Assembly (NCBI GenBank): GCA_048538235.1
Contig: JBLYPX010000001.1
Location: 72,013-136,012 of the forward strand
DNA from: Candidatus Komeilibacteria bacterium
Lineage (GTDB): Bacteria > Patescibacteriota > Patescibacteriia > UBA1558
Reading direction: 5' to 3'
DNA length: 64,000 bases
A program made the translations under genes and the position numbers. Shown here piece by piece: positions 18,399 to 53,818 of this stretch (position 1 is its first letter; every line of letters starts with the position of its first letter). Under the pieces are notes generated by a model. The model was not told the origin of the DNA. It saw only the letters and a list, made by a program, of their open reading frames with translations, and did not search any database.

Positions 18399-19676
18399 CT
18401 ACTTAATGTAAGATAGCTTACGCGTAGCTTGGTAGTCAGGCGTTACCAACCGATACAAATAGATACCACTGGACAAGTTTTTTTGTCCAAGATCTATCAA
18501 TATCGAATGATTTCCGGCCGGTTGTTCATCGCTTACGATAGTCTTTATGGTCTCACCGGTCATGGAAAAGATTGTCAATTCCACAGGACCGTTTGAGGGA
18601 AGAAAATAACTGATCGTAGTAGATGGATTGAAAGGATTGGGATAATTCTGATTCAACCTGAATTCACTGGGCGATAATTGCCCCTCTTCATCTGTTGCCA
18701 GGGCGGAGTTCAGTTGAACAGCTGTTACCTCATATTCCAGGCTTGGATTAGGAATTATTATTGTAGCGTGTTCATTTGCTACAAATTGTTGTTCTGACCA
18801 CATGGTGCCATCTGGCAATATTGTTTTTACGCATACTGCATAGGCATCCGTCTCGATCGTCAGTTCATTCCCAGATAATGATGATACAGAAGGAACCACA
18901 AATGGGGGTTGAACCTCACTCATCAATTCACCAATCCCAAGTTCATAATTTGAAAACATTGGGTGATTGGGGTCGACGACGTATAGATTCACAAGGAATA
19001 GATCAACCAATCCAATGTTCGATACAAACAGAATTGAACCGCGGCCATAATTCAATCCTTCGTTGGTAAACCATTCACTCGATGGTTGGATTTGGCTGTA
19101 CGGGGTTAATAATTCAACGTCAGTCATGTCAACCATGCCATCACCTGATATATCACCCAGAATTCCATCTTGAGAGATAATGTGCTTGGTGTTGTGGATG
19201 TAAGTAGTTGCCAGGTCCGAGTTCAGAACAGTGAGTTGATTCTCTATTCTGAGTTCATGACCAACTGGTTGAAGGTTTTGGTAGTTCACAGTACCGATAG
19301 TATGCCAGGCAAGCCAATTTTGCGTCAGCACTATTTGGTAGCGCCAGAAGGGGTCATTTTCTGTGTAATAACTGGCGCCGGGAATTGCAGGATAACCATT
19401 CTCCTCAATATTCCAATTGTAGACTGGCATAGACAAAAGCTCACCTTGCCAGTATGCATAGGAATGGTATTCCAGTGCAACAATGTTTTGAACCCAGTTC
19501 ACCTGATTAACATGTATGTTGTACGAGAGTTGTTGCTGAGGTAGCATGTATAGCGTATCAACACCATTGACAGGATAGAATGCAAAAGTGTATTCTTCCT
19601 GATCATTGTTTTGTGAATATACACTTCCAAGGGCTATCAAGGTTAGCAATGTTGCAGTTAAAAACTTCACTTTCAT
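18399..19676 (-). CDS. Secreted protein with a dockerin-like Ca-binding motif and a C-terminal T9SS (Por) type-A sorting domain; compositionally foreign
   Basis: It has a signal peptide and the motif DISGDGMVDMTDVE. The last roughly 80 aa (NYPNPFNPSTTISYFLP...SGIYLYRLVTPDYQATRKLSYIK) match the Por_Secre_tail/T9SS C-terminal domain consensus closely. G+C of the gene is visibly much higher than the flanks. Confidence 0.7.
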   Translation of the reverse strand: MKVKFLTATLLTLIALGSVYSQNNDQEEYTFAFYPVNGVDTLYMLPQQQLSYNIHVNQVNWVQNIVALEYHSYAYWQGELLSMPVYNWNIEENGYPAIPGASYYTENDPFWRYQIVLTQNWLAWHTIGTVNYQNLQPVGHELRIENQLTVLNSDLATTYIHNTKHIISQDGILGDISGDGMVDMTDVELLTPYSQIQPSSEWFTNEGLNYGRGSILFVSNIGLVDLFLVNLYVVDPNHPMFSNYELGIGELMSEVQPPFVVPSVSSLSGNELTIETDAYAVCVKTILPDGTMWSEQQFVANEHATIIIPNPSLEYEVTAVQLNSALATDEEGQLSPSEFRLNQNYPNPFNPSTTISYFLPSNGPVELTIFSMTGETIKTIVSDEQPAGNHSILIDLGQKNLSSGIYLYRLVTPDYQATRKLSYIK

Positions 19677-19881: not shown

Positions 19882-19969
19882 GGAGAGGTCGCATAGTGGT
19901 CTAGTGCGCCTGCTTGGAGTGCAGGTATACCGCAAGGTATCGCGGGTTCAAATCCCGCCCTCTCCGCCA
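19882..19969 (+). tRNA. tRNA-Ser (anticodon GGA)
   Basis: GGAGAGGTCGC...CCTGC-TTGGAGT-GCAGG, a long variable arm, then GGGTTCAAATCCCGCCCTCTCCGCCA. It has the class II long arm and an encoded CCA. Confidence 0.85.
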
Positions 19970-23050: not shown

Positions 23051-23338
23051 TTATTTTTTGCCTTGTCTTTTTTTTGCTCTTTCTGTGTGATTAATATCTT
23101 CGACTAGGGCAATCTTTGCTCTTTTCATTAGTTCTTTAATTGCTCTTGGAATATCATCCATATAATTAAATACCTCCGAATCTGATGAAATCTTCTTTGT
23201 TTTATTAGCCTCAATAATAGCAACCCCACTAGACCAGCAAGGGGTTTGTTTGTGATCTTTGCCAACACGTCCAGGTAGCTCATTTGTCCAGAACCTGAGT
23301 TTAATGGCGAGTGTTTTGTTATCCTCTTTTTTTGTCAT
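23051..23338 (-). CDS. Hypothetical basic protein
   Basis: A 95-aa protein that immediately precedes the methyltransferase gene on the same strand. Confidence 0.35.
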   Translation of the reverse strand: MTKKEDNKTLAIKLRFWTNELPGRVGKDHKQTPCWSSGVAIIEANKTKKISSDSEVFNYMDDIPRAIKELMKRAKIALVEDINHTERAKKRQGKK

Positions 23339-23356: not shown

Positions 23357-26300
23357 TTATAGTGAACTTGCTTTGTTTATTCTATTCCAAACTAAACGAC
23401 AAACAACACGATACACCTCCTTACGCTCCTCACTAGACAGATTTAACGAGTCAAATATAATACTATCCAACTTAGCCCTGTCAGATAATGGTTTTGGGTT
23501 TTGTTTTTCTATTGAGATGTCTAATTTCGGATCAATACCACATTCGTCAAAAATAGATTTTATGTCTCTATTTTTAAATAAAGTTAGAGTGTCATTCAGT
23601 TCCTTTTGTCTATCTTTTAGATCGGGAAGTAATAAATTTTTTACCTCATAAACTTTCACATCAACAGGCCCGCCTCCACCACCGTATCCGCGTGCCATTA
23701 ATTCTAATTGGAGTAACGTAATTGTAGAATTACACAACGCGCCTACATAATTATCGCAATACATATCATACATTCTAGCATCAGCTAAAAATCCTGTATT
23801 AGCAACAACAAAGAATCTTTCCCTATACGTCATTGTCCATAGGAAGTTACTAGGAATGTGTTCGCCCAGATCCCACCACCTTTTTCTCCCCTTTATGGTT
23901 GGTATGTTCTGAAATCCAATAATAACCTTGCCCTTGTTGGCACCCTGTTTTATTGTAATTTTTTCTTTTTCGCCCCACTCGATATATTTCAACGCATTAC
24001 TCCCACACAGCTCATCTTTATTTTTATTGCAAACAAAAAGCCTATATTTCAGATCATTTGGCCTAATTAATATACTCTTGCATTCACGTGGGCTTTTTAC
24101 AACAGGTATTAAGAACTCATCTTCTATATTTAATTTTTTAGCTTCCTCTTCTGTTAAGTAAAAAAAATCATTTGCTCCAGTTTTAATTCCAAATTTTATA
24201 TCGGCCATACCACCAAGTTTTACAAGCTTATTCTCTCCCTTATTTAAAATAGTGAAAAAGATATCAGGTGCTCGTAAATATTTACCACCCCATTTATCAC
24301 CAATGTATTTACCACCCAATTTTTTTTGTTCATCATTTTCATATTCAATTCCTGGCTCTCTTAAATTCTCTGCCGTAATAGGATATATTCTATAAGAATC
24401 ATTTGAAACAATTTTTTTTGTTTTTTCGATATGTAAAAGATTTTCGGTAAAAATAGTTTCTTCGAAAGGTTTTTTAAATACCACAAATTTAGTTAAACGA
24501 TCTTCTTCAACTTTCTTCTGTGGCGCATTGATGACAGAAATAACAGTATTAACATCTGCTTCTTTAAAGCTTCGCCTGTTGTTATTATCTATAATAAACT
24601 CTATAGGGCAACGTTTTAATAAAAAATCCTGTAACCATGAACCATAAGCTACGTCGAGCCAGGAACTAGAACATATATAAGTATGTATGCCATTGGGATT
24701 TAACAACCTTAAACCACGTATATAAAAATAAGTATAAAGGTCTGATTGGGCGTTAATTTTTGTCTTATTAGAAAAATCGTTTGGGAAATCCAACCTAACC
24801 ATCTCTTGAAGAAAATTTTTATAATCCTTTTGATTTTTAACATTTCCTGTTGGATCACTTATTGATTCTTGTCTAACATATGGTGGATTACCGATTACAA
24901 TATCAAAACCCTCTTTTTCAACAAATATTTCAGCAAATTCAATATTCCAAACTAATGGTTTATTGTCTTTCAATGAAGATTTTTGACTTTCCAACTCTTT
25001 AATATCATCTTCTAAACATTTGATTTTTTCTTTGTCTATAGAGTTTTTTTTGATAATTTTATCATCTTTTTCTTCACGGCTAAATGAAAAAGGTTGCTGG
25101 CTAGATTCTTTAATATTTTTCTCATTTTTTATTTCTTCTGATAAAATTTTTATTTCATCATCTAAAATATCGCGATAAATTTGTAATTCACTTTGTTCTA
25201 TTTTCCATTTCTTTAAAGCTTCTTTTTTATTATAAAAATAGTCTATTTTTAAATTTTTTAACTCTGTAACCTGCCTTTTAATTTTTTGAGATACAAAAGC
25301 ATGCCCTGTTACAGGAAATGTTTTATTGCCAACTCTTTGTACTAAAGAATCGCCAGGACGTATCTTGAAATCTAAACTTGGTAAAATAGGTTCTATTGAG
25401 TTTTTCATCTCATCAGGCGCATCAATAAAAAGAGTGATCCACAATCTTAGTTGAGTAATCCAAACAGCCCACTCTTTTACTTCAACACCATAAAGCGACT
25501 TTCCTATAATTCTTTTTTTTCGTTCAAATGTGTTAAATTTATCTTCTCCTAGTTTATTATATATATGCTCTTCAATTTCATTGATGACTTGCAACATTCC
25601 CACAGGAAAAGCTCCTGATCCTACCGCAGGATCACAAATTGTTATTTTTTCTAAACAATCTAATATATTTTCATATTGTTCTTTAGAGAATGAGCCATAT
25701 TTTTGTTGGTCTGCATATTCTTCGCTTGTACCGCCCTCAATAAAAAATAACTCATACAAATCACGAATGTCTATATTGCTGGTATTGTTTTTGTGGAGCC
25801 ATTTTACGAGTGATATGCGACACATCAAATCAACTTCAGTTTTTGGAGTATATATAGCACCATCTTCTTTATTAACCAAACGCTCAAATATAATACCTAA
25901 AAATTCAGGATTTAATTCTAATTCTTCATCATAGCGGGTATTTTCTTCTATAGTAAAATTATAAGAAAATAAAAAATCAAAGAAGTCAATTATATTTTTG
26001 TCTGGAATGAATAAATCTTCTTTATCTATATCCTTCTCACGAAACAACCCACCATTTAAATAAGGAGCTGCTTCTAATGCAGCTTTCGTGTCGGCGGGGA
26101 CAAAACTATCTTCTCCGTCAATTTTTTTTCCAGGTGCAGAGTTGAGCGTTTGAAAAAAGAGTGGTTTTAACCAATGAGAATAAAATGTATCATTTTCATT
26201 TGATACATCTAAATATTCTTTCAAATAATTCTGTAAGAATTTTATATTGCCAGCAAGCCAGCCACGTTTTTGAATAAAACCGAGAAAAATTATGCGAATA

Positions 26301-26920
26301 ATAAATAGAAGAGTAAAATCATCCTTCTTCTCTGTCGAGGCTTTATGTGATCCCTCAATTGATTTAGATATTTCCTTAAATCTTGGATAAAAGTCTTGAT
26401 AGAAATCTCTAGTTACTTTAGATAGAGAAAATGCTTCTTTTATATCTTCAATATTATTGAAACTATTATTTCCTATTTGTTGCAAGAACGTTTTATTATT
26501 AAAATCCTCACTAACGAAATATGTGTATCTTTTAAAATTATTCCAAACCCTTTTAGCGCCAGAATATTGAGGATAGATTAAAGAAAATCGGAAGTTGCCA
26601 GCGCTGTCATAGAAAATAAAAATCCCTGCTTCATATTTATCTTCTTGTTTTAATAGTGATTTTGCAAAATCATATTGCGCTTTTTTGTTTAATCTCTCAG
26701 TGACATCTTTATTACTTTGTACCCCTATTACGCAAACATCTTTTAACCTGCCACCAAAATCTATATAACCAATCCTCTTAGTTGATTTAAAAAAATCTTT
26801 ATCATACTTTTCTAAATTTTCATCTAAGTCTTTGTATCTCGTTGATTTTTCACGAAAGAAAACATCAAATTTTTCTAGTGAAAAATCTGTAATAATATTT
26901 TTTAAAATTTCTTTTGACAT
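23357..26920 (-). CDS. Large gamma-class N6-adenine DNA methyltransferase (PglX / Eco57I / Type IIG-like), 1187 aa
   Basis: AdoMet motif I DPAVGSGAFPVG upstream of motif IV IVIGNPPYVRQE (NPPY), a long N-terminal region and a C-terminal Eco57I-like target-recognition region. The start lies 4 nt downstream of the stop of the PLD-SNF2 gene, consistent with an operon. Confidence 0.8.
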   Translation of the reverse strand: MSKEILKNIITDFSLEKFDVFFREKSTRYKDLDENLEKYDKDFFKSTKRIGYIDFGGRLKDVCVIGVQSNKDVTERLNKKAQYDFAKSLLKQEDKYEAGIFIFYDSAGNFRFSLIYPQYSGAKRVWNNFKRYTYFVSEDFNNKTFLQQIGNNSFNNIEDIKEAFSLSKVTRDFYQDFYPRFKEISKSIEGSHKASTEKKDDFTLLFIIRIIFLGFIQKRGWLAGNIKFLQNYLKEYLDVSNENDTFYSHWLKPLFFQTLNSAPGKKIDGEDSFVPADTKAALEAAPYLNGGLFREKDIDKEDLFIPDKNIIDFFDFLFSYNFTIEENTRYDEELELNPEFLGIIFERLVNKEDGAIYTPKTEVDLMCRISLVKWLHKNNTSNIDIRDLYELFFIEGGTSEEYADQQKYGSFSKEQYENILDCLEKITICDPAVGSGAFPVGMLQVINEIEEHIYNKLGEDKFNTFERKKRIIGKSLYGVEVKEWAVWITQLRLWITLFIDAPDEMKNSIEPILPSLDFKIRPGDSLVQRVGNKTFPVTGHAFVSQKIKRQVTELKNLKIDYFYNKKEALKKWKIEQSELQIYRDILDDEIKILSEEIKNEKNIKESSQQPFSFSREEKDDKIIKKNSIDKEKIKCLEDDIKELESQKSSLKDNKPLVWNIEFAEIFVEKEGFDIVIGNPPYVRQESISDPTGNVKNQKDYKNFLQEMVRLDFPNDFSNKTKINAQSDLYTYFYIRGLRLLNPNGIHTYICSSSWLDVAYGSWLQDFLLKRCPIEFIIDNNNRRSFKEADVNTVISVINAPQKKVEEDRLTKFVVFKKPFEETIFTENLLHIEKTKKIVSNDSYRIYPITAENLREPGIEYENDEQKKLGGKYIGDKWGGKYLRAPDIFFTILNKGENKLVKLGGMADIKFGIKTGANDFFYLTEEEAKKLNIEDEFLIPVVKSPRECKSILIRPNDLKYRLFVCNKNKDELCGSNALKYIEWGEKEKITIKQGANKGKVIIGFQNIPTIKGRKRWWDLGEHIPSNFLWTMTYRERFFVVANTGFLADARMYDMYCDNYVGALCNSTITLLQLELMARGYGGGGGPVDVKVYEVKNLLLPDLKDRQKELNDTLTLFKNRDIKSIFDECGIDPKLDISIEKQNPKPLSDRAKLDSIIFDSLNLSSEERKEVYRVVCRLVWNRINKASSL

Positions 26921-26924
26921 AATT

Positions 26925-29900
26925 TTATTTTATATTTTCTATAGCTACAATAACTTCTTTCTGTGGGGCACCTTTTTGTTTAATATCTTCTAAATAATTA
27001 TCCTTGCCAAGCTCCATCTTCATTTGATCTAATGATTTCTTAGTGCGCTCAATATCTGCTTCTTCTTTCGCATCTAATTTTAAATCAATAATCTTACGAA
27101 GTGTGGATTTGGGAAGTGTTTGATAATCTGTGACATCTTGTAAAAGATTGGATAAGAGCCTAGAATAACGACTAAAAATTTTATTTGGATTACTGTCAAA
27201 ACCCTGAAGAACCGTTAATGCTTTACGTTCAATGCTGTTTTCCCCAGATGGAATTCTTGATTTATCATCATAATCTCTTATTTCTACATATTGATCCCAG
27301 AAATTATCCGACAGTTTTAAACTTTTTTCTGAAAAATCACATTTAATCATTTCGAGAACATTTTCAAAATTTATATATTCTATAACTTCCTTCTTGTCAT
27401 TATTATAACTGCGCGAATATAGATTGCCCGCTTTTTTAATAAAAACCAACAAATTATTATCTTTATACTTTTTAGCCGTTTTCACTCTTGATGGAGCCTC
27501 TTCAATTTTAATAGATACTTCTGGATATTCTTTCTTGATTTCATTGAGCATTTTTCTGGTCTTAGTATGAAAACTTTCTTTTTCCATATCGTCGGGATTA
27601 GCTTTCAATTTTTTAAATAGACCAGCTGGTGATGGCTGTTCATCAACATCAAATATTTTAGAATCTTCTCCTAAGGCATTGTGAATCAAAAACATTTTTT
27701 GTTGTGCAATTTCTCTACTGCGCACCTGCGTTGCACCTTTTTCAGTAGGAAAAAAATTAAAAATAAACAATTCATTAAAAACTTTTTTCCCGATCCTATT
27801 AATACGTCCGACTCTTTGTATGACTCTGGTTGGATTCCAGGGTATGTCATAATTCAGAACCGTACCAGCGCGGTTCAAATTAAAACCTTCAGATATTTTA
27901 TCGGTAGCTAACAATACATCATATTTATTATTCTTCTTCTTATAGCTAGCATCAAAATCTTTTAGTATTTCTTCCTTTTTTGAGGTTGATAAACCATTGG
28001 CGATAGACAATAGTCTGCCAGGAAATCTGGCTTCTAATTTATCCTCTAGGTATTTAGCAGTATCTACGTACTCGGTAAAAATAACAACTTTTCGCGTGGG
28101 TTGGTTGATAGCAGTTTTTTTTACTTGTTTTTTAATAGTTTTAACCAAAGCTTCAAATTTAGGATCGTGGCTGGATAGGTTAAGTTCGGTTAATTCTTTT
28201 TTTATTTTTGCAAAAAGCTTTTTATCACTTTCTATGTCTTTTAAAAACTTATCTTTATGTTTAAAATCGTTTATATTGTATATTTTATAATTTTTTGGAT
28301 AATTACCCTCACCCAAACGTTCTTCATATTTAGATAATTCATTATCAATGTCATCCAAATCCAGATTATAAATATCTTCCATTAATTTTCTATCTAAAAT
28401 AAATTGTCCTTTAGAATTTTTAACAAATTCTGAAACTTTTTCATGAACTCTTAAAAAATTATTTATGCTTTGTTCAAAAGCACCAAAAGAGCTTTCAAAC
28501 CTTTTTACTAATAGACGACGCATGAAATCGAACAAATTCTTCTGAGAAAAATATTCAAAGTTGTCTTTTTCTCCCTTGATGCTTTCTGATTCGCTTATAC
28601 CTGATTCATATGAAAATGGTTGATAAATAGCTCCCTTAAATTCGCGTCCGTCATCGCCAAAATAATTTGTAACAATTTTTTCATAAAAATCTAATTGATT
28701 TTTGTTTAGCTCAAAAAATATTTCTTCTGGATCTCTTGTGTCTGATAAATTGTAAACTTCTTTACTATACACAGGATCATTTTTCAAATCTAAACGATTT
28801 CTGCGAATCATTATTGGTTCAATAATACTACGTATTTCACCGGCTAATCTATTGCTTCTTTCCTGAACTTTGCCTAAATCAATTTTTTTACTATCAAAAA
28901 TATTTTGATAGTCTCTAGTCGCTTTATCTTTTTTTCTTTTAGTGGGAGAATTGTAGTTCTTGCTAATGTTTGACAGTTTTTTATACAATTCATTATAAGA
29001 TCTGAATTTATCTTTTAAATTATTATCTAATGTAATTGTTGATTTGCCAGGGACTATAAACAATTGCAAAAGCGAGAAAATATCAGCTGGAGAATTATTG
29101 AAAGGAGTCGCTGTTAATAAAATAACCTTTTTATTTCTACATATATTCTTTAACAATTCGTAGGCTCTAGTGTCTTCATTGCGAAACCTATGTACCTCGT
29201 CAATTATCACAACCTCTATATCTGGGTTATTATGAACAAAATTTAGAGCCTTTTCTAAAGTTTCAACGCCACAAGACATGACACGCCAATCATTAATATC
29301 AAAATTTGATTGATATTCTTTCCATCCAGAATCATCATCTCCGACTAGCCCTGGAGGACTAATTATAATTCCTCTACGGTTTAAAATTCTACCCAGAGCT
29401 CCAGCAATAACACTTTTACCAAGACCAACAACATCAGAAACCATTACACCTCCATGATCATCAATAATACCTAAAGCCTGAATAATAGCGTCTATTTGAT
29501 AGTCGTATGGTTTGTATCCGGCGCTTGTTAAAATATTACTCACTTTTTGTCGAGTGGTTTTAGATGAATAACGATCCAAATAATTTCTAAGAACTAGGGC
29601 AAAAGCTTCAAAAGGGGTGAACTCGGCTGCCATTGTTTTGTTTTCAACCAAGTCTAATAATCTTGTTTTAAATTCTTCAACTTCAGTAATCCTATCAGCA
29701 GTTTCCCACAAATCTTTAAAATATTTTTTTGCCTCATCAACTCCAGAATCCGAAATTTCAACATTAAACTCATGCTGGCCAGCTAATCCAGCACTTGTTA
29801 AATTACTACTACCTGTGATAAAAATATCTCTACTACCAATACCAGCTTGTTCGTTCAATCTAAATAAATACAATTTAGCATGATTGGGCTCTCTAGTTTT

Positions 29901-30278
29901 TCTAATTCTTATTTTATTTTCCTTGATTAATTTTAAGAAGAAATTTACTTGTTCGTAGAAATTTGCATTGTCTAAATCTTGATCCGTTAAACTTTTGTGT
30001 ATAGAGTTTAAAAATCGATCAAAAGATTCCTCTCTTGATAATCCCTTGTCTTTATCACCATATTCTACTAATCCATATACCTGCCTATCAACATTTAACC
30101 CCACAAGTATATCTATCTGACTTTTCGGATTTTTTTTAATAGACTCGTATAATTCTTTAATGCCTGAAAAATAAAAAAATCCTACCAAAAAACGCATCTC
30201 TTCACTGTGCTCAATTAGACGGCTAATTCTTTTTTTAAGGTTTTGTTCCTTATCATTAGTAATGAATTTTGATGACAT
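26925..30278 (-). CDS. PLD-family nuclease domain fused to an SNF2-family (SF2) helicase, 1117 aa
   Basis: The N-terminal HKD-type motif NHAKLYLF...GSSNLT indicates a phospholipase-D-like nuclease. SF2 motifs follow: I VVGLGKSVIAG, II VIIDEVHRF (DExH), III LLTATP, and VI QRVGRINRIG in the helicase-C domain. Confidence 0.8.
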   Translation of the reverse strand: MSSKFITNDKEQNLKKRISRLIEHSEEMRFLVGFFYFSGIKELYESIKKNPKSQIDILVGLNVDRQVYGLVEYGDKDKGLSREESFDRFLNSIHKSLTDQDLDNANFYEQVNFFLKLIKENKIRIRKTREPNHAKLYLFRLNEQAGIGSRDIFITGSSNLTSAGLAGQHEFNVEISDSGVDEAKKYFKDLWETADRITEVEEFKTRLLDLVENKTMAAEFTPFEAFALVLRNYLDRYSSKTTRQKVSNILTSAGYKPYDYQIDAIIQALGIIDDHGGVMVSDVVGLGKSVIAGALGRILNRRGIIISPPGLVGDDDSGWKEYQSNFDINDWRVMSCGVETLEKALNFVHNNPDIEVVIIDEVHRFRNEDTRAYELLKNICRNKKVILLTATPFNNSPADIFSLLQLFIVPGKSTITLDNNLKDKFRSYNELYKKLSNISKNYNSPTKRKKDKATRDYQNIFDSKKIDLGKVQERSNRLAGEIRSIIEPIMIRRNRLDLKNDPVYSKEVYNLSDTRDPEEIFFELNKNQLDFYEKIVTNYFGDDGREFKGAIYQPFSYESGISESESIKGEKDNFEYFSQKNLFDFMRRLLVKRFESSFGAFEQSINNFLRVHEKVSEFVKNSKGQFILDRKLMEDIYNLDLDDIDNELSKYEERLGEGNYPKNYKIYNINDFKHKDKFLKDIESDKKLFAKIKKELTELNLSSHDPKFEALVKTIKKQVKKTAINQPTRKVVIFTEYVDTAKYLEDKLEARFPGRLLSIANGLSTSKKEEILKDFDASYKKKNNKYDVLLATDKISEGFNLNRAGTVLNYDIPWNPTRVIQRVGRINRIGKKVFNELFIFNFFPTEKGATQVRSREIAQQKMFLIHNALGEDSKIFDVDEQPSPAGLFKKLKANPDDMEKESFHTKTRKMLNEIKKEYPEVSIKIEEAPSRVKTAKKYKDNNLLVFIKKAGNLYSRSYNNDKKEVIEYINFENVLEMIKCDFSEKSLKLSDNFWDQYVEIRDYDDKSRIPSGENSIERKALTVLQGFDSNPNKIFSRYSRLLSNLLQDVTDYQTLPKSTLRKIIDLKLDAKEEADIERTKKSLDQMKMELGKDNYLEDIKQKGAPQKEVIVAIENIK

Positions 30279-30407
30279 AGTGTTAAAATTAACTTAAAAT
30301 CCCTTTAATTATCCCTTTTTTTAGCCAAAAAGTCAAAGGAATCGGTCAAATAAGATAATACTTATTCACAACACAAAACACAATCATTAAAAACCCCTTT
30401 AGTTGCA

Positions 30408-31547: not shown

Positions 31548-32876
31548 TTATTCAACGTATACTTTTTTATTTTTAATGCTAATTAAGCTTTTAAAAGATG
31601 ATATTATTTGCCTCTGTTCTTCAATATTTCCATTAGCTATTAAGAACTTAACGTATTTCTTAACATCAACGTCAGAAATAGTTATATTTGTTTTCTGACC
31701 TAATAAATAACTATTAAACTTTTTATACCTTATAACTTCATCACTTATCTGTTTCTTAATAGCTAAGTTGTTTATATTAACATTATCAATTAGATTGGTC
31801 AGCTGTTTGATTAAATCTGTTTCACTTATATAACCGCACTTACAGTTTTTATCTCTAGATTTTGTGCAACCGTAATAAACATGGCGGGTATAACCACCAT
31901 TCTTTAGTTTCTTAAATTTCTCAGTTGCAGATATACCAGAACCGCACAAACCGCACTTCATTATTTTAGTAAATGCAAATTCTATATTTTCTCTTCTAAC
32001 CAAATCGGATTTTTTAATTTGTTCTTGAACTTGATCGTATAGTTCCTTGCTAACTATTGGTTCGTGTTTTCCTTTGTACCAATTACCCGATCCCCGAGGA
32101 TATTCAAATGAACCATAATAAAATGGAGTACTTAAAGCTCTATATATATTACCAAGACTGAAATGTTTCTTACCCGCTACTGTTCTAAAATTTAGATCAA
32201 ATTTCAGCCAGTGATATAGTTTTCTGCCTGACCATTTTTCATAAGCTACTTTTTCAAACATTTGTTTAATAATTGGTGCACGATCAGGATCTAGTAAACA
32301 TTCTCCTTTATGATCCATACGCTTATCTTTAAAATATCCAGTTGGAGGACAGGTTGGCCATAAACCCATTTCACATCTAGTTCTAAGTCCTCGTTTCACA
32401 TTAATACCTCTATTATCATTTTCTAGTTTAGCTTGAGAACAAAGTATCATTAATAAGAACTTTTCATTTGGTGAATTGCTAAAGGTTTGTCCGTAAGTTC
32501 TAATGCCTAACAATTTTTTAGCATCCATTAGATCAACCAACGATCCAAGATCGCCGGCATTTCTTGAAAGTCTATCTGGTGCCCATGTAAGAATAGCATT
32601 GAATCTATTTTCTGCTATGTCTTGCAATAGCTCCTTAAATATAGGACGTTTATCTGAATCTTTAGCTGACTTCGCCTCTCTTTTTATGTTAATGATTTCT
32701 AAATTTTCACGCTCTGCTATTTGTAGCATTTCTTTAACTTGTGATTCTATTGATAGGGCTTGTCTCTCGTCTGATTCAGTACTTTTTCTAGCATACAAGC
32801 AATACCTTAATTTAACGTCTGGAGCTATTCCAAACTTGGTTTGTTGTGACATATTCATGCCTCCATGATGACACAT
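31548..32876 (-). CDS. Large serine recombinase (resolvase/integrase family)
   Basis: N-terminal catalytic domain motif YARKSTESDERQALSIESQ (the R-x-S-T...Q pattern of serine recombinases). It is followed by a recombinase domain and a C-terminal zinc ribbon (CGLCGS...YYGC). The true start is probably one of the Met residues at positions 7 to 9. Confidence 0.8.
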   Translation of the reverse strand: MCHHGGMNMSQQTKFGIAPDVKLRYCLYARKSTESDERQALSIESQVKEMLQIAERENLEIINIKREAKSAKDSDKRPIFKELLQDIAENRFNAILTWAPDRLSRNAGDLGSLVDLMDAKKLLGIRTYGQTFSNSPNEKFLLMILCSQAKLENDNRGINVKRGLRTRCEMGLWPTCPPTGYFKDKRMDHKGECLLDPDRAPIIKQMFEKVAYEKWSGRKLYHWLKFDLNFRTVAGKKHFSLGNIYRALSTPFYYGSFEYPRGSGNWYKGKHEPIVSKELYDQVQEQIKKSDLVRRENIEFAFTKIMKCGLCGSGISATEKFKKLKNGGYTRHVYYGCTKSRDKNCKCGYISETDLIKQLTNLIDNVNINNLAIKKQISDEVIRYKKFNSYLLGQKTNITISDVDVKKYVKFLIANGNIEEQRQIISSFKSLISIKNKKVYVE

Positions 32877-33199: not shown

Positions 33200-34363
33200 A
33201 TGGGATCAACAATTTGTCCATTCTGTAAAGAGGAAATCAAAGAGGATGCAGTCGTTTGTAAACACTGTAATCAAGACCTTTCCAATTTTAGAAAACAAGA
33301 AGTAAATCAGGTAGAAGCTGAAAACAATCTTAAAAAAGAAAAGAACAAAAAGGCTTTGAAAATAGTAGGTATAGTTTTGCTGGTAGCAGTATGTATTAGG
33401 CTTTGGTTTATTTCTATTCCAATTATCGGAATGTGGTATGTGTGGAGTAAAACAAAATGGAATAAAAAACAAAAATATATAGCCTTGGGAGCACTTTGTG
33501 TTCTGGCTATTATTCTTATTAGTATGAATAGTTATATCTCTCAACCACCAACAATTACTATTTTAGAACCAACGAACAATTTTACTACTGATGCCGATAG
33601 TGTAACTATTAAGGGCTTTGTTAAGCCTATTGATGTAGAGTTATTGTTTAATAATCAACCGATTGTAATTCAATCTGACGGTAGTTTCAGCAAAGACATA
33701 GCTTTGGGTAACGAGGTGAATACCGTTTCGTTTAAAGCTACAGATAACGATAAAGTTACAGAACAAACATTAACAATAAATCGTACTTTTACGGAAGAAC
33801 AAAAAGCTGAATTAGAAAAAACAAGAAAAGAAGCAGCCGAGAAAGCTAAGACTGATCAAATTACTAAAGATAAAGAACAGTTACAACGTGAATTGGATTC
33901 TTTCAATACTCCATTTGATAGCTCTGCCTACAGGGGCAGTGCTGATGCTTTAACTATGGAGGCGGTAATATTTAATGTGTGGGCTCAACTGATTAATGAA
34001 TATAAAGAGAGTTCTGACTTGGAATTAAAATCTATGGCTAATCAGCTTGAACAGAAGGTTTCACAACTACAGGTCAAAGAATTTCCCTTAATGAGAAAAA
34101 ACTATGCCGATATGCTTGCCGAAAAATTATGGGAGGAAAATTTAGAAGTTGTAATCAAAGGAAGTAGTAATGATACGCTAGAATTGATCTCTGGAGTTTT
34201 TGCAAGTAACAAAAACATAGCTGATATACAATCAACCATTGAAAGCATGTTAGAATTATTGCGTTTTAGTAGAGTTAATTATAAATGGTATAAGTATGAT
34301 TCAGACTACACCCATTATACTATTGACAGTGAATATGATAGTGAGGTGGTTTTTACAAACTAA
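33200..34363 (+). CDS. Zinc-ribbon membrane protein with an extracytoplasmic domain and a coiled-coil region
   Basis: CPFCKEE...CKHCNQ zinc ribbon at the N-terminus and two TM helices. The C-terminal region is coiled-coil prone (EEQKAELEKTRKEAAEKAK). Confidence 0.45.
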   Translation: MGSTICPFCKEEIKEDAVVCKHCNQDLSNFRKQEVNQVEAENNLKKEKNKKALKIVGIVLLVAVCIRLWFISIPIIGMWYVWSKTKWNKKQKYIALGALCVLAIILISMNSYISQPPTITILEPTNNFTTDADSVTIKGFVKPIDVELLFNNQPIVIQSDGSFSKDIALGNEVNTVSFKATDNDKVTEQTLTINRTFTEEQKAELEKTRKEAAEKAKTDQITKDKEQLQRELDSFNTPFDSSAYRGSADALTMEAVIFNVWAQLINEYKESSDLELKSMANQLEQKVSQLQVKEFPLMRKNYADMLAEKLWEENLEVVIKGSSNDTLELISGVFASNKNIADIQSTIESMLELLRFSRVNYKWYKYDSDYTHYTIDSEYDSEVVFTN

Positions 34364-35856
34364 AAGAAAAATACTCTTGGAACGCAGGGTCTGTGTTCAG
34401 ATACACTGAGGACAAGATTGGAAAAAGCGTCGGCTAAATCATCATGTTTTTCTACTCCGAAGTGAATGATTTGCTGTATAAGTTGTTCAGCTCCATGTCT
34501 GGGAAACAATATTTGCCCTGTTTTAATCAGATTAGCAGTTAAGACCAATCTACTACGTTTATCTTGAAGACCAGGTCTAGTTGTCATAACATTAACTATT
34601 CCTTCACTTTTTAATTGTTGAGGTAGTGCTTTTTGATAAGCCACATCTTCAATAATAAATGTAGGGTGCGTGCCTTTACCTTTATAACTTTCATCTAACA
34701 ATTTGCAGACATCTACAGTCTCGGGAAAATTCATCCGTTTATTTATTATTTTAGGTAAGATATATATCTTATAGTCGGTTTTAGTTTCATATAAAAGTCC
34801 CGGAACCATAGCAGTATAATCTGCTATATTGCTTTTAGAAATGGCCGGGTCAATGCCAATCCTTACCTCGGTGTGAGAAGTGAAGATGTCATCAAATTTC
34901 ATTGGTGGTGGTATCTCGTCATAGTAATGAATCCATTCTGGAAATATAGCTTGATCTTCATCTGGAACAATATTAAGTAAGTACTCACGTTGCCAAGCAA
35001 TATCATTACCTATCTTTTTTCTCTCATTATCTAAGTCTTGTGTAGTTGGATATTTGCCAGGCCACAAACACTTTCCTTTATTATCAACTAAAGGGAAAAA
35101 TAGAAATTTGCCATCAATCCATTGTTTATCTATTTCGTCCTTTAATCTCATTAAAAGTGAATCTTCGTGAAGTAGGTTACCAACCACAATTAACCTCGTG
35201 TTAATATCTCCAGCTGGTAAGACCTCTCCTTTTAGCCATTGGTGTGTTTTGTTTCTACTTTCACGCGTCTTAGTTGATGCCATATTCTCAACATCATCGC
35301 ATATGATTAAATCTGGCCTATGTTCATGATGTCTAAGCCCGCGGATACTTTGTTCTGCAGATGCTACAGTAATTCTTGCACCTGTATTGGAAAAGACAAG
35401 CGATTGAGAACCCCATTCATCTTTATCTTCTTGAAAAGGGCCGAGGTCTTTTTTAAGTAAGTCATTATCTTCTAATTCGTTTCGTAAATTCATCATGTGC
35501 TGTTTTGCTTGAGCTTGTGTTTGGCAAAAAACAATAACAAATTTCTTTTGCTGTTTTCCCAGTATTGCCCAAATTGGATAGGCTGTAGTAACCATTGTAG
35601 ATTTACCAGAGCCTCTGAAGGCAACAATAAATAAATTGCTTTTATCGTCTGATTCAACCAAGTGAATTATTTCCTTTTGGAAATCAGCTGTTGCATATTT
35701 AACATAATGAGCATAGTAAAAGTGGAAAAAGTAGGAAAAGCTTTCTTTGGTTATTGCTGTTCTTACTTTTTTATCTTTTGTCATTTGATCTACAAGATCT
35801 TGTGGTATTATTTTATTTATCATCTTTTTTATCGGGTAATGGTAAAATTTGTGCAA
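34360..35856 (-). CDS. Phage terminase large subunit (PBSX/Terminase_6-like)
   Basis: Walker A AFRGSGKST, Walker B LIICDDVEN, and a C-terminal RNase-H-like nuclease with IGIDPA and DDLADAF acidic motifs. It overlaps the upstream TerS-like gene by 44 nt. Confidence 0.7.
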   Translation of the reverse strand: MHKFYHYPIKKMINKIIPQDLVDQMTKDKKVRTAITKESFSYFFHFYYAHYVKYATADFQKEIIHLVESDDKSNLFIVAFRGSGKSTMVTTAYPIWAILGKQQKKFVIVFCQTQAQAKQHMMNLRNELEDNDLLKKDLGPFQEDKDEWGSQSLVFSNTGARITVASAEQSIRGLRHHEHRPDLIICDDVENMASTKTRESRNKTHQWLKGEVLPAGDINTRLIVVGNLLHEDSLLMRLKDEIDKQWIDGKFLFFPLVDNKGKCLWPGKYPTTQDLDNERKKIGNDIAWQREYLLNIVPDEDQAIFPEWIHYYDEIPPPMKFDDIFTSHTEVRIGIDPAISKSNIADYTAMVPGLLYETKTDYKIYILPKIINKRMNFPETVDVCKLLDESYKGKGTHPTFIIEDVAYQKALPQQLKSEGIVNVMTTRPGLQDKRSRLVLTANLIKTGQILFPRHGAEQLIQQIIHFGVEKHDDLADAFSNLVLSVSEHRPCVPRVFFF

Positions 35857-36217
35857 GTTTTAAGGCTTTTTGCACTATTTCAGCCTGAGCGGAGGTAAGC
35901 TCACCTGAATCCTCAATTTTAGATGTAACCTCCATTTTGTCTTTAAATTTAGGATTCCTATGATTAAGCCAAAATCTTATAGCAGAAAAGTTCTTTTCTT
36001 TTATAAGCGTAAGTAATTGGCTTTCTGACATATCATTAACAAGAGCTTCTCCTTCGGCGATTGCTTCATCCACAGCTTTGGAAAACTTTTTATCTTCTCT
36101 CTTCCACCTATAAATACTATTTCTAGATATACCTGTTTTTTCGCAAGCAACTTGTACTATGGGAACTTTTTTAAGTTCTGCTAAAAATATATTTTTAACT
36201 CTATTTTTCTTAGACAT
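35813..36217 (-). CDS. Terminase small subunit-like HTH protein
   Basis: A 134-aa protein with an N-terminal HTH (VACEKTGISRNSIYRWK). Its position immediately upstream of and overlapping TerL is typical of TerS. Confidence 0.5.
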   Translation of the reverse strand: MSKKNRVKNIFLAELKKVPIVQVACEKTGISRNSIYRWKREDKKFSKAVDEAIAEGEALVNDMSESQLLTLIKEKNFSAIRFWLNHRNPKFKDKMEVTSKIEDSGELTSAQAEIVQKALKLAQILPLPDKKDDK

Positions 36218-37487
36218 CGTGTTTAACCACCGCCTTTCTGCCAGTTAATTTTTCATATCTTCTGATAATCAAATCACAAAATATGGGTTCTAGCTCCATG
36301 GCATAAACCTTTCTTTTTAATTGTTCACCAGCGATTATAGTACTACCTGAACCAGCAAAAGAATCCAAAATTATATCTCCTGGTTTTGTACACCTACGAA
36401 TTGCCTTTTCGTGAAGTTTAGGAGGTTTACTCGTCGCATGCTCATAGCTTTGACCTGATAATCTTTTTACAAACCAAGTATCAAGGTTGTCAAAGGCTTC
36501 ATCAAGTAGACTATTACCAGTAGTCATCTCCTTATTCAGTACTTCATTAAGATTTTGAATTTGTGGTGCTATGTATGGCTTTCCAATTGTTCCATACACA
36601 TTTGGTTCATAACACTTATTAAAAGCTATTTTAGGGGTAGGGCTTTGAGAATTCTTCAACCACAGACAAACACGCTTGTTAACTATATTAAGTTCCCTAT
36701 ATAGTTCTTGAAATAAACCAATGAAACTTTGGTCACACCAATAGAACACGTGACAATCTGACTTAATTGTTAATAGGGCAGTAGTTAGACTATCTCTTAT
36801 AAAGTTTTTGTACTCTTCATAAGTACGATTGTCCTTTACGTTCCCACCGTAGTCGTTTTTGCCACCTATGCCCTTAGAATAGTTTAAATTTATATTATAA
36901 GGGGGGTCAGAATAGATCATTGAGGCTTTTTTGTTTCCAAATAATCTCTTGATGTTCTTAAGGTCGGTACAACTACCACACAGTAATCTATGTGGTCCTA
37001 AATAAATTAAGTCACCCAGTTTAGTTTTAGGTTTCTTGATTTTCTTAAGTTCTTCTTCAACACTAAAATCCTCATCTTTAATCTCAAGCTCCTCGTCCCA
37101 TATTTTAGATAAATCAACATCGTCAAATCCAATGTCTGTCAAAAGATCTAATTCAAACGACTTGAGCTTAGCAAAATCCCAATCACCACCTAGAGCATTA
37201 CTAGCAATAAGGTAGCGTTCAGATTCTTGTTTGGTAAGTTTTCTGTTAGGAATTCTTACGTCTATAAGCTCATTACCTCGACCAAGTAATTGCAAAGCCT
37301 TGATCCTTTGATGGCCTGCTAGTATTTTGCCATTTGAATCAATGGCTGGGATTTCCACTAAATTGAACTTTTTTAAGTTCTTTTTTAAGTCCGACATTTG
37401 CTTATCGGAAATAGTACGAGGATTAATGTCTTGTGGAATAAGATCGTTAACTCGTTTTTGCACTGTGTGCCATTTCAGTTTTTCCAT
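36210..37487 (-). CDS. ParB-like nuclease domain fused to an N6/N4 DNA methyltransferase (phage-type)
   Basis: An N-terminal ParB/Srx-like region, then methyltransferase motif IV SDPPY (MIYSDPPYNINLNY) preceding motif I DSFAGSGSTIIAGEQL (beta-class order). This gene arrangement is common beside phage terminase genes. Confidence 0.75.
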   Translation of the reverse strand: MEKLKWHTVQKRVNDLIPQDINPRTISDKQMSDLKKNLKKFNLVEIPAIDSNGKILAGHQRIKALQLLGRGNELIDVRIPNRKLTKQESERYLIASNALGGDWDFAKLKSFELDLLTDIGFDDVDLSKIWDEELEIKDEDFSVEEELKKIKKPKTKLGDLIYLGPHRLLCGSCTDLKNIKRLFGNKKASMIYSDPPYNINLNYSKGIGGKNDYGGNVKDNRTYEEYKNFIRDSLTTALLTIKSDCHVFYWCDQSFIGLFQELYRELNIVNKRVCLWLKNSQSPTPKIAFNKCYEPNVYGTIGKPYIAPQIQNLNEVLNKEMTTGNSLLDEAFDNLDTWFVKRLSGQSYEHATSKPPKLHEKAIRRCTKPGDIILDSFAGSGSTIIAGEQLKRKVYAMELEPIFCDLIIRRYEKLTGRKAVVKHDV

Positions 37488-40213: not shown

Positions 40214-43200
40214 ATGATCGAAGTAAAGATAGTAGATACAAATAATAGCTTATTAAATGAGGACCAGTCTGAGGTTGTTGGAAAGATTGAAAGTCCAGCT
40301 CAGCAAAAATTATATAAACAATTAAAAAAATATAATAATGAAGTCGCCAACACTTATAGGGGGGCTTTAATTGTTTTAATGTCTAAAGATAATCCTGATC
40401 GTTTTAAACAATCTGCTCATTCGTTGAGGCTATTAAGTGGATTAATAGTGAGAGATATAATTGTTGAGGATAAGAGTGACAATAGAGCTGTCACAGATAT
40501 TGTTTTGGACTGGCTTAATAGTTACTCAAAAAACAATCCGCCAACATATGAAGAAATTGATTCGTTTAAGAAAAAGTTAGAAATTTTTACATTAAATCAT
40601 ATTAAAAAAATGATATTAATGATAAGGAAAGACGATCCTATGGGTGGTCCACCAGAACACGTAATTAGACAAATAACTAGAGAGTGGAATGATCTACATA
40701 ATTTTTTTAATAGAGTCGCTAAAACTGGAAATACAACAGAATCAGATTTTAAAAACCATCTTTCTGAGATGGAATTGATTTTATTTAACATCACAAGTAG
40801 TTATTATGATAATAGAGACCAAATAGAAAAAGTATTAAATAAAAAGCCATCAGTTAGACTCGCAAAAGAATTATCTAAAATGATAGTCTCTTATAGGAGT
40901 TATGAGTATTTGTTTGAACGTGCTTCATCAGACTGGTTGACGCCGTTAAGAGGTGTTGGCTTTTTTGTCTTGCCAGAGCAAAGCTTAAGAATATGGCCCC
41001 CTTCTAAATATCTATTAAGAATAATTGCTGAAAAGCCTGAGGAAATTGTTGGTATAGTTAATTCTTTCTCCGACACTTCAAATCCAGCCATTATTGATGA
41101 TATTATCAACATGGCTTTAAACGTAGATATCAAATATACGCTAGAAATAATTAAAATAATTTTTCAGAAGAAATGGGTTATAAATGGTTTTTTTGGAGAT
41201 AATTATTGGTCTGGACATAATGTATATAAATTAATAGATTATCTAGTAAAAAACAATAAGGCTGATGCTGCTTTAAAATTATTTCAAAATTTTTTATCTT
41301 TTGATAAGGAAACAGAAGGAGTTGGTCTAAGATCTGCCAAACCTCACATAAGGGTTCATGACTATAGGGACTTGTTGGATAAGCATATAGATAGTCTAGT
41401 AGAGATTAAACCAACAGAAACGATTGAGGTTATTGCAAAATTTTTAAACGCAACATACTTAAAAATCTATACGGATGCAGGAGGTAAAAGGGTTTATTCG
41501 AGAAAAGAAGACTATTCTTATTTAGATTATAAGGACATTGAAGAAGGTATGTACCATTTGGATAGCGCTACTATCATTTTGTTAAGATCTCTAATTAATT
41601 TACTTGAAAATGTCGCCACAAATAATCACGGTATAATATTTGACTGTATGGATAAATTAAATTATCCACTTTATATTTTTAGAATGATTAAGTTAAGGAT
41701 GTATAATAAATTTCCATCTTTATTTAAAGGAGAAATCAAAAGTAGTTTGTTAAAATCAGAAAACTATGAGGATATTAATGATATCGGTGAAGTCTTTTCA
41801 GAATTAGTTGTTAATAATTTTAAATTATTAAATAACGCTGAAAAAGAAAAAGTATTTAAAATCACTGAGAAGTGCCCAAAGTATATTTTAGAATTACGAG
41901 ATATAACCCAAGAACAAATAGACGAATTTTTTGAGCGGTGGAGATATAAAAATTTATATTTAGTGAAGGCCTTTTTAAATGGAGACAGCAAAGTGTGGTT
42001 TGATTCTGTAAAAGATAAATATTCTCCTCCAGACTTTACGAAAGGTTTATCAACTACATGGGTTGGACCGACTAGTGATATTACTGTAACAGATTTTAAC
42101 AGTATGGATCCAGACGTAATAATAAGGGAGCTTGATGAATGGATTCCGCCAAAAGGATCAATGGTAGACACGCCGGAGGGTAGAGGTCGTAATTTGAGTG
42201 AATCGATTAAATTTAACCCCAATAAATATTTTCCCCTTGCGTTAGAGTTTATTAAAAAAAAGCTTCGCTTTACATACATTCATCATTTATTTTGGGGTTT
42301 TGAATTAGCACACAGAGAAAAACATCCAATGGATTGGGATAAAATTATTGACGCCGGAATTAACTTGGTTAGGCTAGATAAGGATAATATAGATAAGTTT
42401 CCTAAAACAAGTAATGATGATTTTGAATATGATCACGATGGTGCAGTGAGGTCGTTATTGAGTTTAATCGATCAGGGGTTGGGTCAAAAGGAAATAGATA
42501 TGCCTGTGAGTAGAAGGGGTGATATATGGGAAATAATAAAAAAAGGTACTAAAAGCACTTACCCTGATTTGGAACATGAAAAAGAGTATGGAGGCAACAA
42601 CATGGATCCGTTTACTATGTCTATCAACACAACTAGGGGCGAGGCCATGCACGCCTTAATAAGATATGCTTCTTGGATTGTTCAGCAATCTAAAGAAAAA
42701 AGAGGTTTACCAAAAGAGGTTCTTCAAGTATTAAATTATCATTTGGATTATAAAAATGATCCAACAGAAACTATTCATTGTATTTATGGAAGATATCTAC
42801 CATTTCTTTCGCACCACGAGCCTGAGTGGGTTAAAAAAAATATGAAGCTAATATTTCCAGACGAAAAGGAAAAGTTTTTGGTTTGGAAAGCGACTTTTGG
42901 GACTTATTTAAGAGGTAATATGTATATTGATCTTTTCTCAGAACTTTTTGGGCAATATAGTAAAGCTATAGAATATGTTTCAACAATTGAAGATGAGAAA
43001 AATGAACATGATCATTTTGTAGAAGCGCTTGCGAACCATATAGCTTTAGCACTGGTTTACAACGCAGAAAATGCGACAAGTATTGCAGAAAAATTATTTA
43101 AAGCCAAAAACGATAGATTAAAAAAGCATATTGTATTTTATATAGGCGCTAATATATTGAAGCCAGATTTGAGAAATATGAGGGATAAAAAATACGCAGA

Positions 43201-49616: not shown

Positions 49617-49667
49617 TTGTTCATTACATGAATTTATGTTATAATTTGGTATATAACAACATTTTTT

Positions 49668-50774: not shown

Positions 50775-50776
50775 TT

Positions 50777-51262
50777 ATGCAGAAGTTTATTGTTCCACAA
50801 TTTATTGACGTTGAAAGTAAAATATTTGGACCAATTACAACCAGACAGTTTTTAATAATGTTAGTTGGTTTAATGTTTGGTTTTGTAGCATATAAATTAT
50901 CTGACATATCATTATTCGCAGTAGAGGCAGCTATTATTGCGGTTGTAACTATAGCCTTTGCCTTTGTTAAAGTTAATTCAGCCCCTTTTCATGTTTTTCT
51001 TTTAAACTATATTAAAACAATGAAGTCAGCTAAGATTAGAATTTGGAAAAGACAACCATATATTCAACAAACAAAGAAACAGGAAGAGGAAAATATTAAT
51101 AATAATGAGCCAGTGGTAAACAAGAGACAGGTTAGTGCTTCAAGATTATCTGAGCTGTCATTAATAATAGACACGGGTGGAGCATACCAAGGAGAAGATC
51201 CATTACAAAATACATTAGATACACAACCAATAAATATAGATAAAGAATTAGGAGAAAATTAA
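50777..51262 (+). CDS. Small two-TM protein (PrgI/VirB3-like position)
   Basis: A 161-aa protein with two adjacent TM helices. It lies directly upstream of VirB4, as in Gram-positive T4SS operons. Confidence 0.4.
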   Translation: MQKFIVPQFIDVESKIFGPITTRQFLIMLVGLMFGFVAYKLSDISLFAVEAAIIAVVTIAFAFVKVNSAPFHVFLLNYIKTMKSAKIRIWKRQPYIQQTKKQEEENINNNEPVVNKRQVSASRLSELSLIIDTGGAYQGEDPLQNTLDTQPINIDKELGEN

Positions 51263-53801: not shown

Positions 53802-53818
53802 TTATTAATTTTGTATAT

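Follow-up and report, generated by a model that had tools for sequence, protein, structure and literature searches.

A widespread gene pair of PLD-Snf2 nuclease-motor and Type IIG-like methylase in Candidatus Komeilibacteria, probably a split restriction-modification system

In a 64,000-nucleotide stretch of a Candidatus Komeilibacteria contig (JBLYPX010000001.1), which we call the window, two large genes lie next to each other on the minus strand. The upstream gene, here called A (26925..30278, 1117 amino acids (aa)), encodes a phospholipase D (PLD)/HKD nuclease fused to a RapA-like Swi2/Snf2 ATPase, the putative restriction subunit; the downstream gene, B (23357..26920, 1187 aa), encodes the putative modification and specificity subunit, a gamma-class N6-adenine methyltransferase that resembles Type IIG enzymes and has its target-recognition domain (TRD) at the C-terminus. 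Both are uninterrupted open reading frames (ORFs) with Pfam matches, neither is a pseudogene, and their junction reads TAA-AATT-ATG, leaving a spacer of 4 nt. An earlier note, made from the letters of this region, had described two giant minus-strand genes 4 nt apart, and we found the coordinates, the intactness and the spacer to be as it said. Proteins identical to A and B are on record, both from one contig of a Candidatus Komeilibacteria metagenome-assembled genome. The pair is far beyond chance, because each protein has thousands of full-length homologues and the linkage of the two genes is conserved.

Protein A begins with a single copy of the PLD (HKD) nuclease domain (29679..30278, minus strand; aa 1-200), recognised by Pfam PLDc_2 (aa 87-191, E 7e-10) and by the catalytic residues H133, K135, S157/N159 and E170 of the Nuc/BfiI type. 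It continues into a two-lobe Swi2/Snf2 ATPase motor (27669..29516, minus strand; aa 255-870), in which Pfam finds SNF2-rel_dom/ResIII at aa 324-534 and Helicase_C at aa 715-830 (E 4e-20), and which contains the helicase motifs GLGKS (motif I, 285-289), DEVH (II, 360-363), TATP (III, 389-392) and QRVGRINR (VI, 821-828); the matches of A in a sequence search of the PDB are Snf2-family remodelers. Neither the PLD residues nor these four helicase motifs vary in an alignment of A with 22 homologues of 52-78% identity (23 sequences). The remaining C-terminal alpha+beta and helical region (26928..27581, minus strand; aa 900-1117), delimited from the secondary structure of a predicted model, is the least conserved part of the protein. 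Pfam recognised no target-recognition or modified-base reader domain in A.

The model of full-length A, of moderate confidence (pLDDT, the predicted local distance difference test score, 71), has RapA as its best Foldseek match over the whole length, followed by Snf2 remodelers. The helicases of BREX-related (BR) systems are themselves RapA-like, those of type 2 having an N-terminal HKD domain, and their C-terminus has been described as 'inactive REase + alpha/beta' (BREX-related literature). The predicted full-length alignment with RapA fits these helicases, apparently including their C-terminal region. At the level of sequence, the PADLOC 'HKD+Snf2' model PDLC01075, which we take to be derived from Gao_RL, aligned to aa 108-1085 of A (E 7e-36), and its 122 bits over ~980 aa represent a remote similarity. 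In Nuc and BfiI, the PLD active site is formed by dimerisation of single-HKD chains. With one HKD copy per chain, the active site of A would therefore need two chains and, by analogy, would form by dimerisation. Cryo-EM of MtsD, a distant relative of A, has revealed a dimer with one shared PLD site (bioRxiv 10.64898/2026.09.23.753747).

Protein B, also read from the minus strand throughout, consists of four parts. An alpha/beta N-terminal domain (26501..26920; aa 1-140) occupies the place of the PD-ExK nuclease in Type IIG enzymes, and is followed by a helical domain (25931..26443; aa 160-330) that is common to HsdM, MmeI and PglX and has a YLNGGLF motif at 287-293. The methyltransferase core (24431..25930; aa 331-830) contains motif I, DPAVGSGAF (430-438), and motif IV, NPPY (678-681), and the TRD (23360..24430; aa 831-1187), defined from conservation profiles and an alignment with M.BseCI, surrounds a hypervariable core (23561-23920; aa 1001-1120) with conserved flanks on either side. 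The order of motif I before motif IV, with the TRD at the C-terminus, is that of the gamma class; both motifs as well as YLNGGLF are unchanged across 41 homologues adjoining an A-family gene. Pfam matched the Eco57I methylase at aa 475-785 (E 3e-30, 106 bits) and MmeI_Mtase at aa 413-498 only (45 bits). The 171 positions of the Eco57I profile are spread across 311 residues of B, and between motifs I and IV lies a charged insertion, coiled-coil-like by eye (24956-25288; aa ~545-655), of which aa 601-640 are gapped in about half of the A-linked homologues. Taken together, the Pfam matches bear out the domains that the earlier note had assigned to the two proteins, and the motifs it had named are present.

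The nearest solved relatives of B in a profile search of the PDB are CamA, M.BseCI, MmeI (5hr4, E 0.003) and M.TaqI, all matching the methylase core only, with M.BseCI aligned to aa 707-1113; a search of the PDB with the single sequence of B gave no match. Among PADLOC models, B is matched best by REase_MTase_IIG at 165 bits, compared with 75 for DrmMI and 41 for PglX, and the NCBIfam PglX models reach 26-48 bits against cut-offs of 400-900. The suggestion that B matches PglX and DrmMI rather than a Type II enzyme is reversed by these scores, the 75 bits of the best DrmMI model against 165 for Type IIG reflecting likeness at the level of a shared superfamily. The Type IIG models align to B from aa 161 on, leaving the region of the nuclease domain uncovered. 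A model of aa 1-350 (pLDDT 86) places the alpha/beta domain at aa 1-140, and no conserved D...(D/E)xK was found in this domain in sets of 23 or 41 homologues; the residues that are conserved there are G51, R76, K79, Q82, D105, R111, S113, R131 and T133. Judging from this pattern of conservation, B is probably without a canonical nuclease, and cleavage would be supplied by A. On plasmid pMESIL02 of Allomeiothermus silvanus (locus L081, 3831-7161), the B homologue is split in two ORFs, a 787-aa methylase corresponding to B aa 60-830 and a 327-aa 'hypothetical protein' corresponding to B aa 834-1186, which shows that a TRD can be encoded as a specificity subunit of its own.

We surveyed the distribution of the pair by scanning one genome per species with the A alignment; the single A sequence, used in the same kind of genome scan, gave no confirmed relative, and the alignment query succeeded. 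More than 570 relatives matched two short A motifs, and 80 loci were kept. These loci span more than 20 phyla, with isolates including Anaerolinea thermolimosa, Neotamlana nanhaiensis, Flavobacterium celericrescens and Thermodesulfobacterium thermophilum, and the cassette is also distributed among gut Bacteroidales, Dehalococcoides, Thermus-group plasmids and the candidate phyla radiation. Plasmid copies of the pair occur in Allomeiothermus, Thermus and Parabacteroides, and metagenomic homologues number in the thousands; phage records held no relatives of A.

Clustering all ORFs of the 80 loci revealed a B-family gene in 57 of them, and 60 of its 61 copies share the strand of A. A precedes B in 40 copies and follows it in 21, the gap between them is at most 200 nt in 39/61, and 4-nt overlaps are frequent. 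A and B are separate ORFs in each of the 57 linked loci. Twenty of the 23 loci without B have a contig end within ~2.5 kb of A on one side. The co-occurrence of the two genes is hence conserved across genomes and not confined to the one in which the pair was noticed. No third conserved gene was detected in these loci, the next commonest neighbour family being present in just 8/80. That family is a Schlafen/AlbA_2 + HATPase_c_4 + winged helix-turn-helix (wHTH) gene next to or between A and B (L033 13333-14985, L037 91-1749, L082 6439-7983 and five further loci), which is also seen on the Parabacteroides plasmid; an accessory gene of the same composition has been reported beside BREX and BR systems.

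The conserved neighbours of the 80 loci include no DUF1998, DUF499, DUF3780, PglZ or BrxC gene. Likewise, we scanned 30 other ORFs of the window, including every ORF of at least 400 aa, for defence cores, and none of these 30 contains a DUF1998, DUF499, PglZ or BrxC domain, so that the absence of DrmA/DrmB and BREX genes, stated in the earlier note, is upheld for the ORFs scanned. The small ORFs downstream of B have no Pfam match, DUF3780 included.

Relatives of 78% identity stand in unrelated genomic contexts, beside sugar-biosynthesis genes or rpoBC, and the pair therefore moves as a cassette. Together, linkage and mobility support the view of a conserved, mobile defence module resembling restriction-modification (RM) systems. 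Across pairs of homologues, identity in A correlates with identity in the B core (aa 1-800; r 0.52, Mantel p about 0.001) and not with identity in the TRD segment (aa 1000-1120; r 0.08). The TRD evolves fast, with a mean pairwise identity of 16%, compared with 38% for the B core and 52% for A. Such a pattern of divergence would be expected if B were the specificity module and A a constant effector.

The earlier note had considered this architecture undescribed; the layout has in fact been catalogued at least in two places. AchA6III consists of an MmeI-like methylase/TRD without a PD-ExK nuclease and an adjacent fused PLD nuclease/translocase (Blow et al. 2016, PMC4752239, S4 Fig B); it is classed in REBASE as type IIG*, methylates adenine at N6 (m6A) at AGCCAG, with 89% of sites methylated, and was scored active (Blow et al. 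2016, PMC4752239), methylation being the only activity documented for it (PMC4752239). Milman et al. 2023 (PMC9881135) described Type II RM genes homologous to Cj0031 whose neighbour encodes PLD (cd09178) and SNF helicase domains, and these loci are targets of programmed inversion. The pair in the window has the features of the AchA6III type, namely a methylase/TRD of MmeI-like architecture with no PD-ExK motif and an adjacent fused PLD nuclease-translocase, and it belongs to a catalogued, widespread and mechanistically little-studied kind whose layout is not new.

A closer comparison with the AchA6III locus, on plasmid pACHL02, shows a 1098-aa helicase-related protein followed, after a 4-nt overlap, by a 955-aa methylase. 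The order of helicase-nuclease and then methylase is the same as in the pair, with overlapping stop and start codons there and a 4-nt spacer here. The AchA6III helicase shows homology to A in the PLD domain and in each of the two ATPase lobes (27-28% identity, E 3e-24 and 1e-20), its methylase is likewise gamma-class with YxNGGLF, DPAxGxGxF and NPP(Y/F) motifs and no PD-ExK, and in both cases one TRD serves the whole system. On the other hand, B is 230 aa longer, with the insertion in its methylase core, and the overlapping 331-aa ORF that comes after the AchA6III methylase (L086 12726-13721) has no counterpart here and no similarity to B. The AGCCAG (m6A) motif of AchA6III has been verified.

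These observations suggest, with a probability that we put at about 0.72, that A and B are the two subunits of an ATP-dependent split RM system, Type IIG-like and of the kind that REBASE labels 'IIG*'. B would be the sole sequence reader, its C-terminal TRD recognising a short asymmetric site and its gamma-class methylase putting m6A on one strand of host sites. Without the PD-ExK nuclease that is canonical for single-chain Type IIG enzymes, and which it would have lost, B would leave cleavage to A, acting in trans, with two A PLD domains, one HKD per chain, pairing into one active site. On an unmethylated site, B would recruit or license an A dimer through physical coupling of the two proteins, and A would then translocate, its RapA-like Swi2/Snf2 motor moving along DNA using ATP. 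Cleavage would take place when complexes from two unmodified sites meet, most efficiently when the sites are inverted, and would be expected to act against phage. A two-site rule of this type would spare daughter chromosomes while they are hemimethylated, as Type III, Type ISP and MANTIS do.

We also entertain, far more tentatively and as a possibility that we would sooner doubt than assert, a specific form of this mechanism that might be called 'Type ISP in trans' and would make the two-gene form a class of its own in mechanism, in which B would load and license the dimeric RapA-like HKD-Snf2 nuclease directly, with no AAA+ loader of the sort required by MANTIS. Coupling would run through the conserved, non-canonical N-terminal domain of B (with Q82, D105, R111, S113 and R131 invariant), a relic of the Type IIG nuclease that might have been repurposed. 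If true, the pair would be the simplest known system in which recognition directed by a methylase is joined to a Snf2 translocase nuclease, and would offer a tractable model for the switching on of BREX-related and DISARM effectors.

Several points weigh against a split RM system. The AchA6III methylase is similar to B at the level of motifs only (BLASTP E 0.066), B belonging to an Eco57I/TaqI-like lineage, and the precedent therefore shares effector and layout, not methylase lineage. SauUSI, a solved PLD-helicase, was expected but does not appear in the top 50 structural matches of the A model, whose pLDDT is only 71, and the nuclease activity of MtsD has not yet been shown in vitro (bioRxiv 10.64898/2026.09.23.753747). 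We found no demonstration of restriction by the two-gene form in the searchable literature, and no experiment exists on this pair or a close relative. Finally, a set of polar residues in the N-terminal domain of B (Q82, D105, R111, S113 and R131) is strongly conserved, which would allow a non-canonical catalytic role.

This last point leads to the main rival explanation, in which B is a self-sufficient Type IIG enzyme with a non-canonical N-terminal nuclease, and A is an accessory protein or a distinct defence, such as a SauUSI-like Type IV enzyme directed against modified DNA, or a motor that does no more than enhance B. We regard it as unlikely. The N-terminal domain shows no conserved D...(D/E)xK and lies before aa 161, where the Type IIG models start, and the REBASE curators read the AchA6III methylase as being without a nuclease motif; A, for its part, has no recognisable target-recognition or modified-base reader domain. 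The tight same-strand linkage, the stop/start overlaps and the co-divergence of A with the B core also fit the subunits of one enzyme better than a pair of independent systems. A pair that acts with no DNA cleavage at all, by BREX-like exclusion or mainly as an epigenetic, phase-variable regulator, seems to us more improbable still, even though related Eco57I-like methylases are often targets of programmed inversions (PMC9881135) and some Type IIG-like systems act without detectable cleavage (PMC4752239). The PLD catalytic residues and ATPase motifs of A are invariant across phyla, indicating selection on nuclease and motor, and no inverted TRD cassettes or invertase adjoin the pair, the serine recombinase 4.6 kb away belonging to the island described below.

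The other two alternatives derive the pair from larger systems. In one, it is a MANTIS, Gao_RL or BREX-related type 2 system reduced by loss of the DUF499 AAA+ loader and the DUF3780 partner, an idea in line with the full-length match of A to the PADLOC 'HKD+Snf2' model and with the combination of HKD and RapA-like architecture seen in type 2 BR helicases. Neither a DUF499 nor a DUF3780 gene was found in the window or at any of the 80 loci, however, and from their absence throughout these loci it follows that the two-gene state is a stable form, not a decay product. The methylases differ as well, MtsC being alpha-class with a central TRD and B gamma-class with a C-terminal one, and we give this derivation little credence, marginally less than the cleavage-free alternative. 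The least credible of all is a minimal or degenerate class 1 DISARM made of a DrmC-DrmD fusion and DrmMI, which was one of the two readings offered in the earlier note. DrmD models are indeed the top partial matches for A (123 bits in PADLOC, 155 in NCBIfam), and DrmMI models do match B (75 bits). The DrmD equivalog NF038317 (NCBIfam) reaches its 155 bits against a cut-off of 610, with its best stretch at aa 578-934 only, in the C-terminal half of A; B is matched better by Type IIG models, its PglX scores also lie far under the cut-offs, and DrmA/DrmB are absent from the window and from all 80 loci.

The intergenic region 5' of A (30279..30407, minus strand) contains a promoter-like TTGACT-17-GATAAT (30336-30308), picked up by a consensus scan; in promoter and terminator scans around the pair, the numbers of sites did not exceed shuffled expectation in this AT-rich region, and the evidence is therefore weak. 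On the same strand, 18 nt downstream of B, lies a 95-aa ORF (23051..23338), a possible clade-specific accessory gene outside the conserved core. A 71% identical ORF is found near the pair in the closest relatives, L083 and L084, only, where a Trypsin_2 gene stands between the methylase and this counterpart; no counterpart occurs in the wider set of 80 loci, and Pfam, PADLOC and PHROG gave no match to the 95-aa ORF.

Upstream of A, the earlier note had placed the pair in a recombinase-bearing island next to a phage packaging module, and the corresponding genes are present: a serine recombinase (31548-32876), a terminase large subunit (34360-35856; phrog_38, E 9e-79), a helix-turn-helix protein that is possibly the small terminase subunit (35813-36217) and a ParB-fused N6/N4 methylase (36210-37487). 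Between 31548 and 37487 there were no recognisable genes for capsid or tail, and the region looks like a prophage remnant or a satellite-like island. A tRNA-Ser gene lies at 19882-19969, and a search for att-type direct repeats around it and the island returned only AT-rich chance matches. Within this window, the pair amounts to commonplace defence cargo, of a type already catalogued, carried on a mobile island.

Three other features of the window were recorded. On the plus strand, an ORF of 1132 aa (40214-43612) has no Pfam match and is matched by the PADLOC Dsr1 model at aa 293-1012 (E 2e-31), a region that corresponds to the C-terminal part of the defence-associated sirtuin; no SIR2 domain was recognised, and the ORF is a possible second defence gene, ~10 kb away from the pair. 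A same-strand gene run (48399-56051, plus) includes a methylase-like gene (48399-49616, UPF0020/N6_N4_Mtase) and a TraG/VirD4-like P-loop ATPase (51942-53801), and may point to a module for conjugation or DNA transfer downstream of the island. On the minus strand, an ORF at 18399-19676 has a match to Por_Secre_tail (type IX secretion sorting, E 2e-7), unexpected in Patescibacteria, which could be weak or spurious, or could reflect gene transfer or mis-binning.

The cassette is common and occurs in many phyla, with more than 570 species-level genomes matching two short motifs of A and thousands of metagenomic homologues. Judging from the PADLOC model matches, defence-annotation tools would probably call B alone, as 'RM type IIG', and leave its nuclease-motor partner unassigned; A-B pairs should instead be called as one RM system. 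With two proteins and no AAA+ loader, the pair could be a simpler model than MANTIS, BREX or DISARM for asking how a methylase-bound site activates a Snf2-type nuclease, and its interest lies in this mechanistic gap and in the lack of a loader, not in the novelty of its layout.

How the pair relates to known defence systems can be stated in terms of its parts. Class 1 DISARM likewise combines DrmC, a PLD nuclease, with the Snf2 helicase DrmD and the large gamma-class adenine methylase DrmMI, but there DrmC and DrmD are separate proteins, and the DUF1998 core of DrmA/DrmB is absent here. BREX was considered and rejected, as BrxC/PglY and PglZ are neither in the window nor among the conserved neighbours and the PglX scores are sub-threshold. 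MANTIS (Gao_RL, GAO_29, BR type 2) comes close in its effector, MtsD, which like A combines an HKD nuclease with a Swi2/Snf2-type ATPase; MtsD is a dimer required for restriction, and the methylase directs both modification and restriction (bioRxiv 10.64898/2026.09.23.753747). MANTIS further depends on MtsA, a DUF499 AAA+ loader, on the small partner protein MtsB and on MtsC, an alpha-class methylase whose TRD is central (bioRxiv 10.64898/2026.09.23.753747), the small MtsB-type protein being DUF3780 in one account (PMC12839542) and DUF3870 in the MANTIS preprint. Counterparts of MtsA and MtsB are absent here, and B differs from MtsC in methylase class and in the position of the TRD.

Separately, a distant relative of A heads a different, four-gene system on plasmid pMsp65 of Acinetobacter sp. 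NEB149 (L087 8467-18436), composed of the helicase-related protein, a DUF4391 protein, a site-specific Type III-like methylase and a second DEAD/DEAH helicase. The helicase match recurs on many Acinetobacter plasmids. This gene set, with DUF4391, the Type III-like methylase and the second helicase, rules the Acinetobacter plasmid match out as a MANTIS locus.

The coupling of a PLD nuclease to an SF2 helicase-like ATPase, with a dimer forming one PLD site, is shared with SauUSI (Type IV) and with CglI/NgoAVII. SauUSI has its own TRD and targets methylated DNA, and in CglI the ATPase is a protein apart from the nuclease subunit, which is the one that reads the site, whereas in the pair this role would fall to the methylase subunit. 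Type ISP enzymes (LlaGI, LlaBIII) have the same set of activities, namely a nuclease, an SF2 ATPase motor, a gamma-class m6A methylase and a C-terminal TRD, and the operon order of A and then B equals the order of domains along the Type ISP chain. The pair differs in being two polypeptides instead of one, in its PLD/HKD nuclease in place of an Mrr-like PD-(D/E)xK (PMC2790908), and in its RapA-like Swi2/Snf2 motor and the extra N-terminal alpha/beta domain of B; PDB searches gave no sequence-level match to the solved Type ISP structure. The second reading of the earlier note, a split Type ISP enzyme with PLD replacing Mrr, thus stands as a reasonable functional analogy and falls as a matter of membership, with two chains here where Type ISP has one and no Mrr-like nuclease. 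Type ISP enzymes hemimethylate their sites and cleave after long-range, ATP-driven communication between inverted sites (Type ISP literature), and such behaviour would be expected of this pair too.

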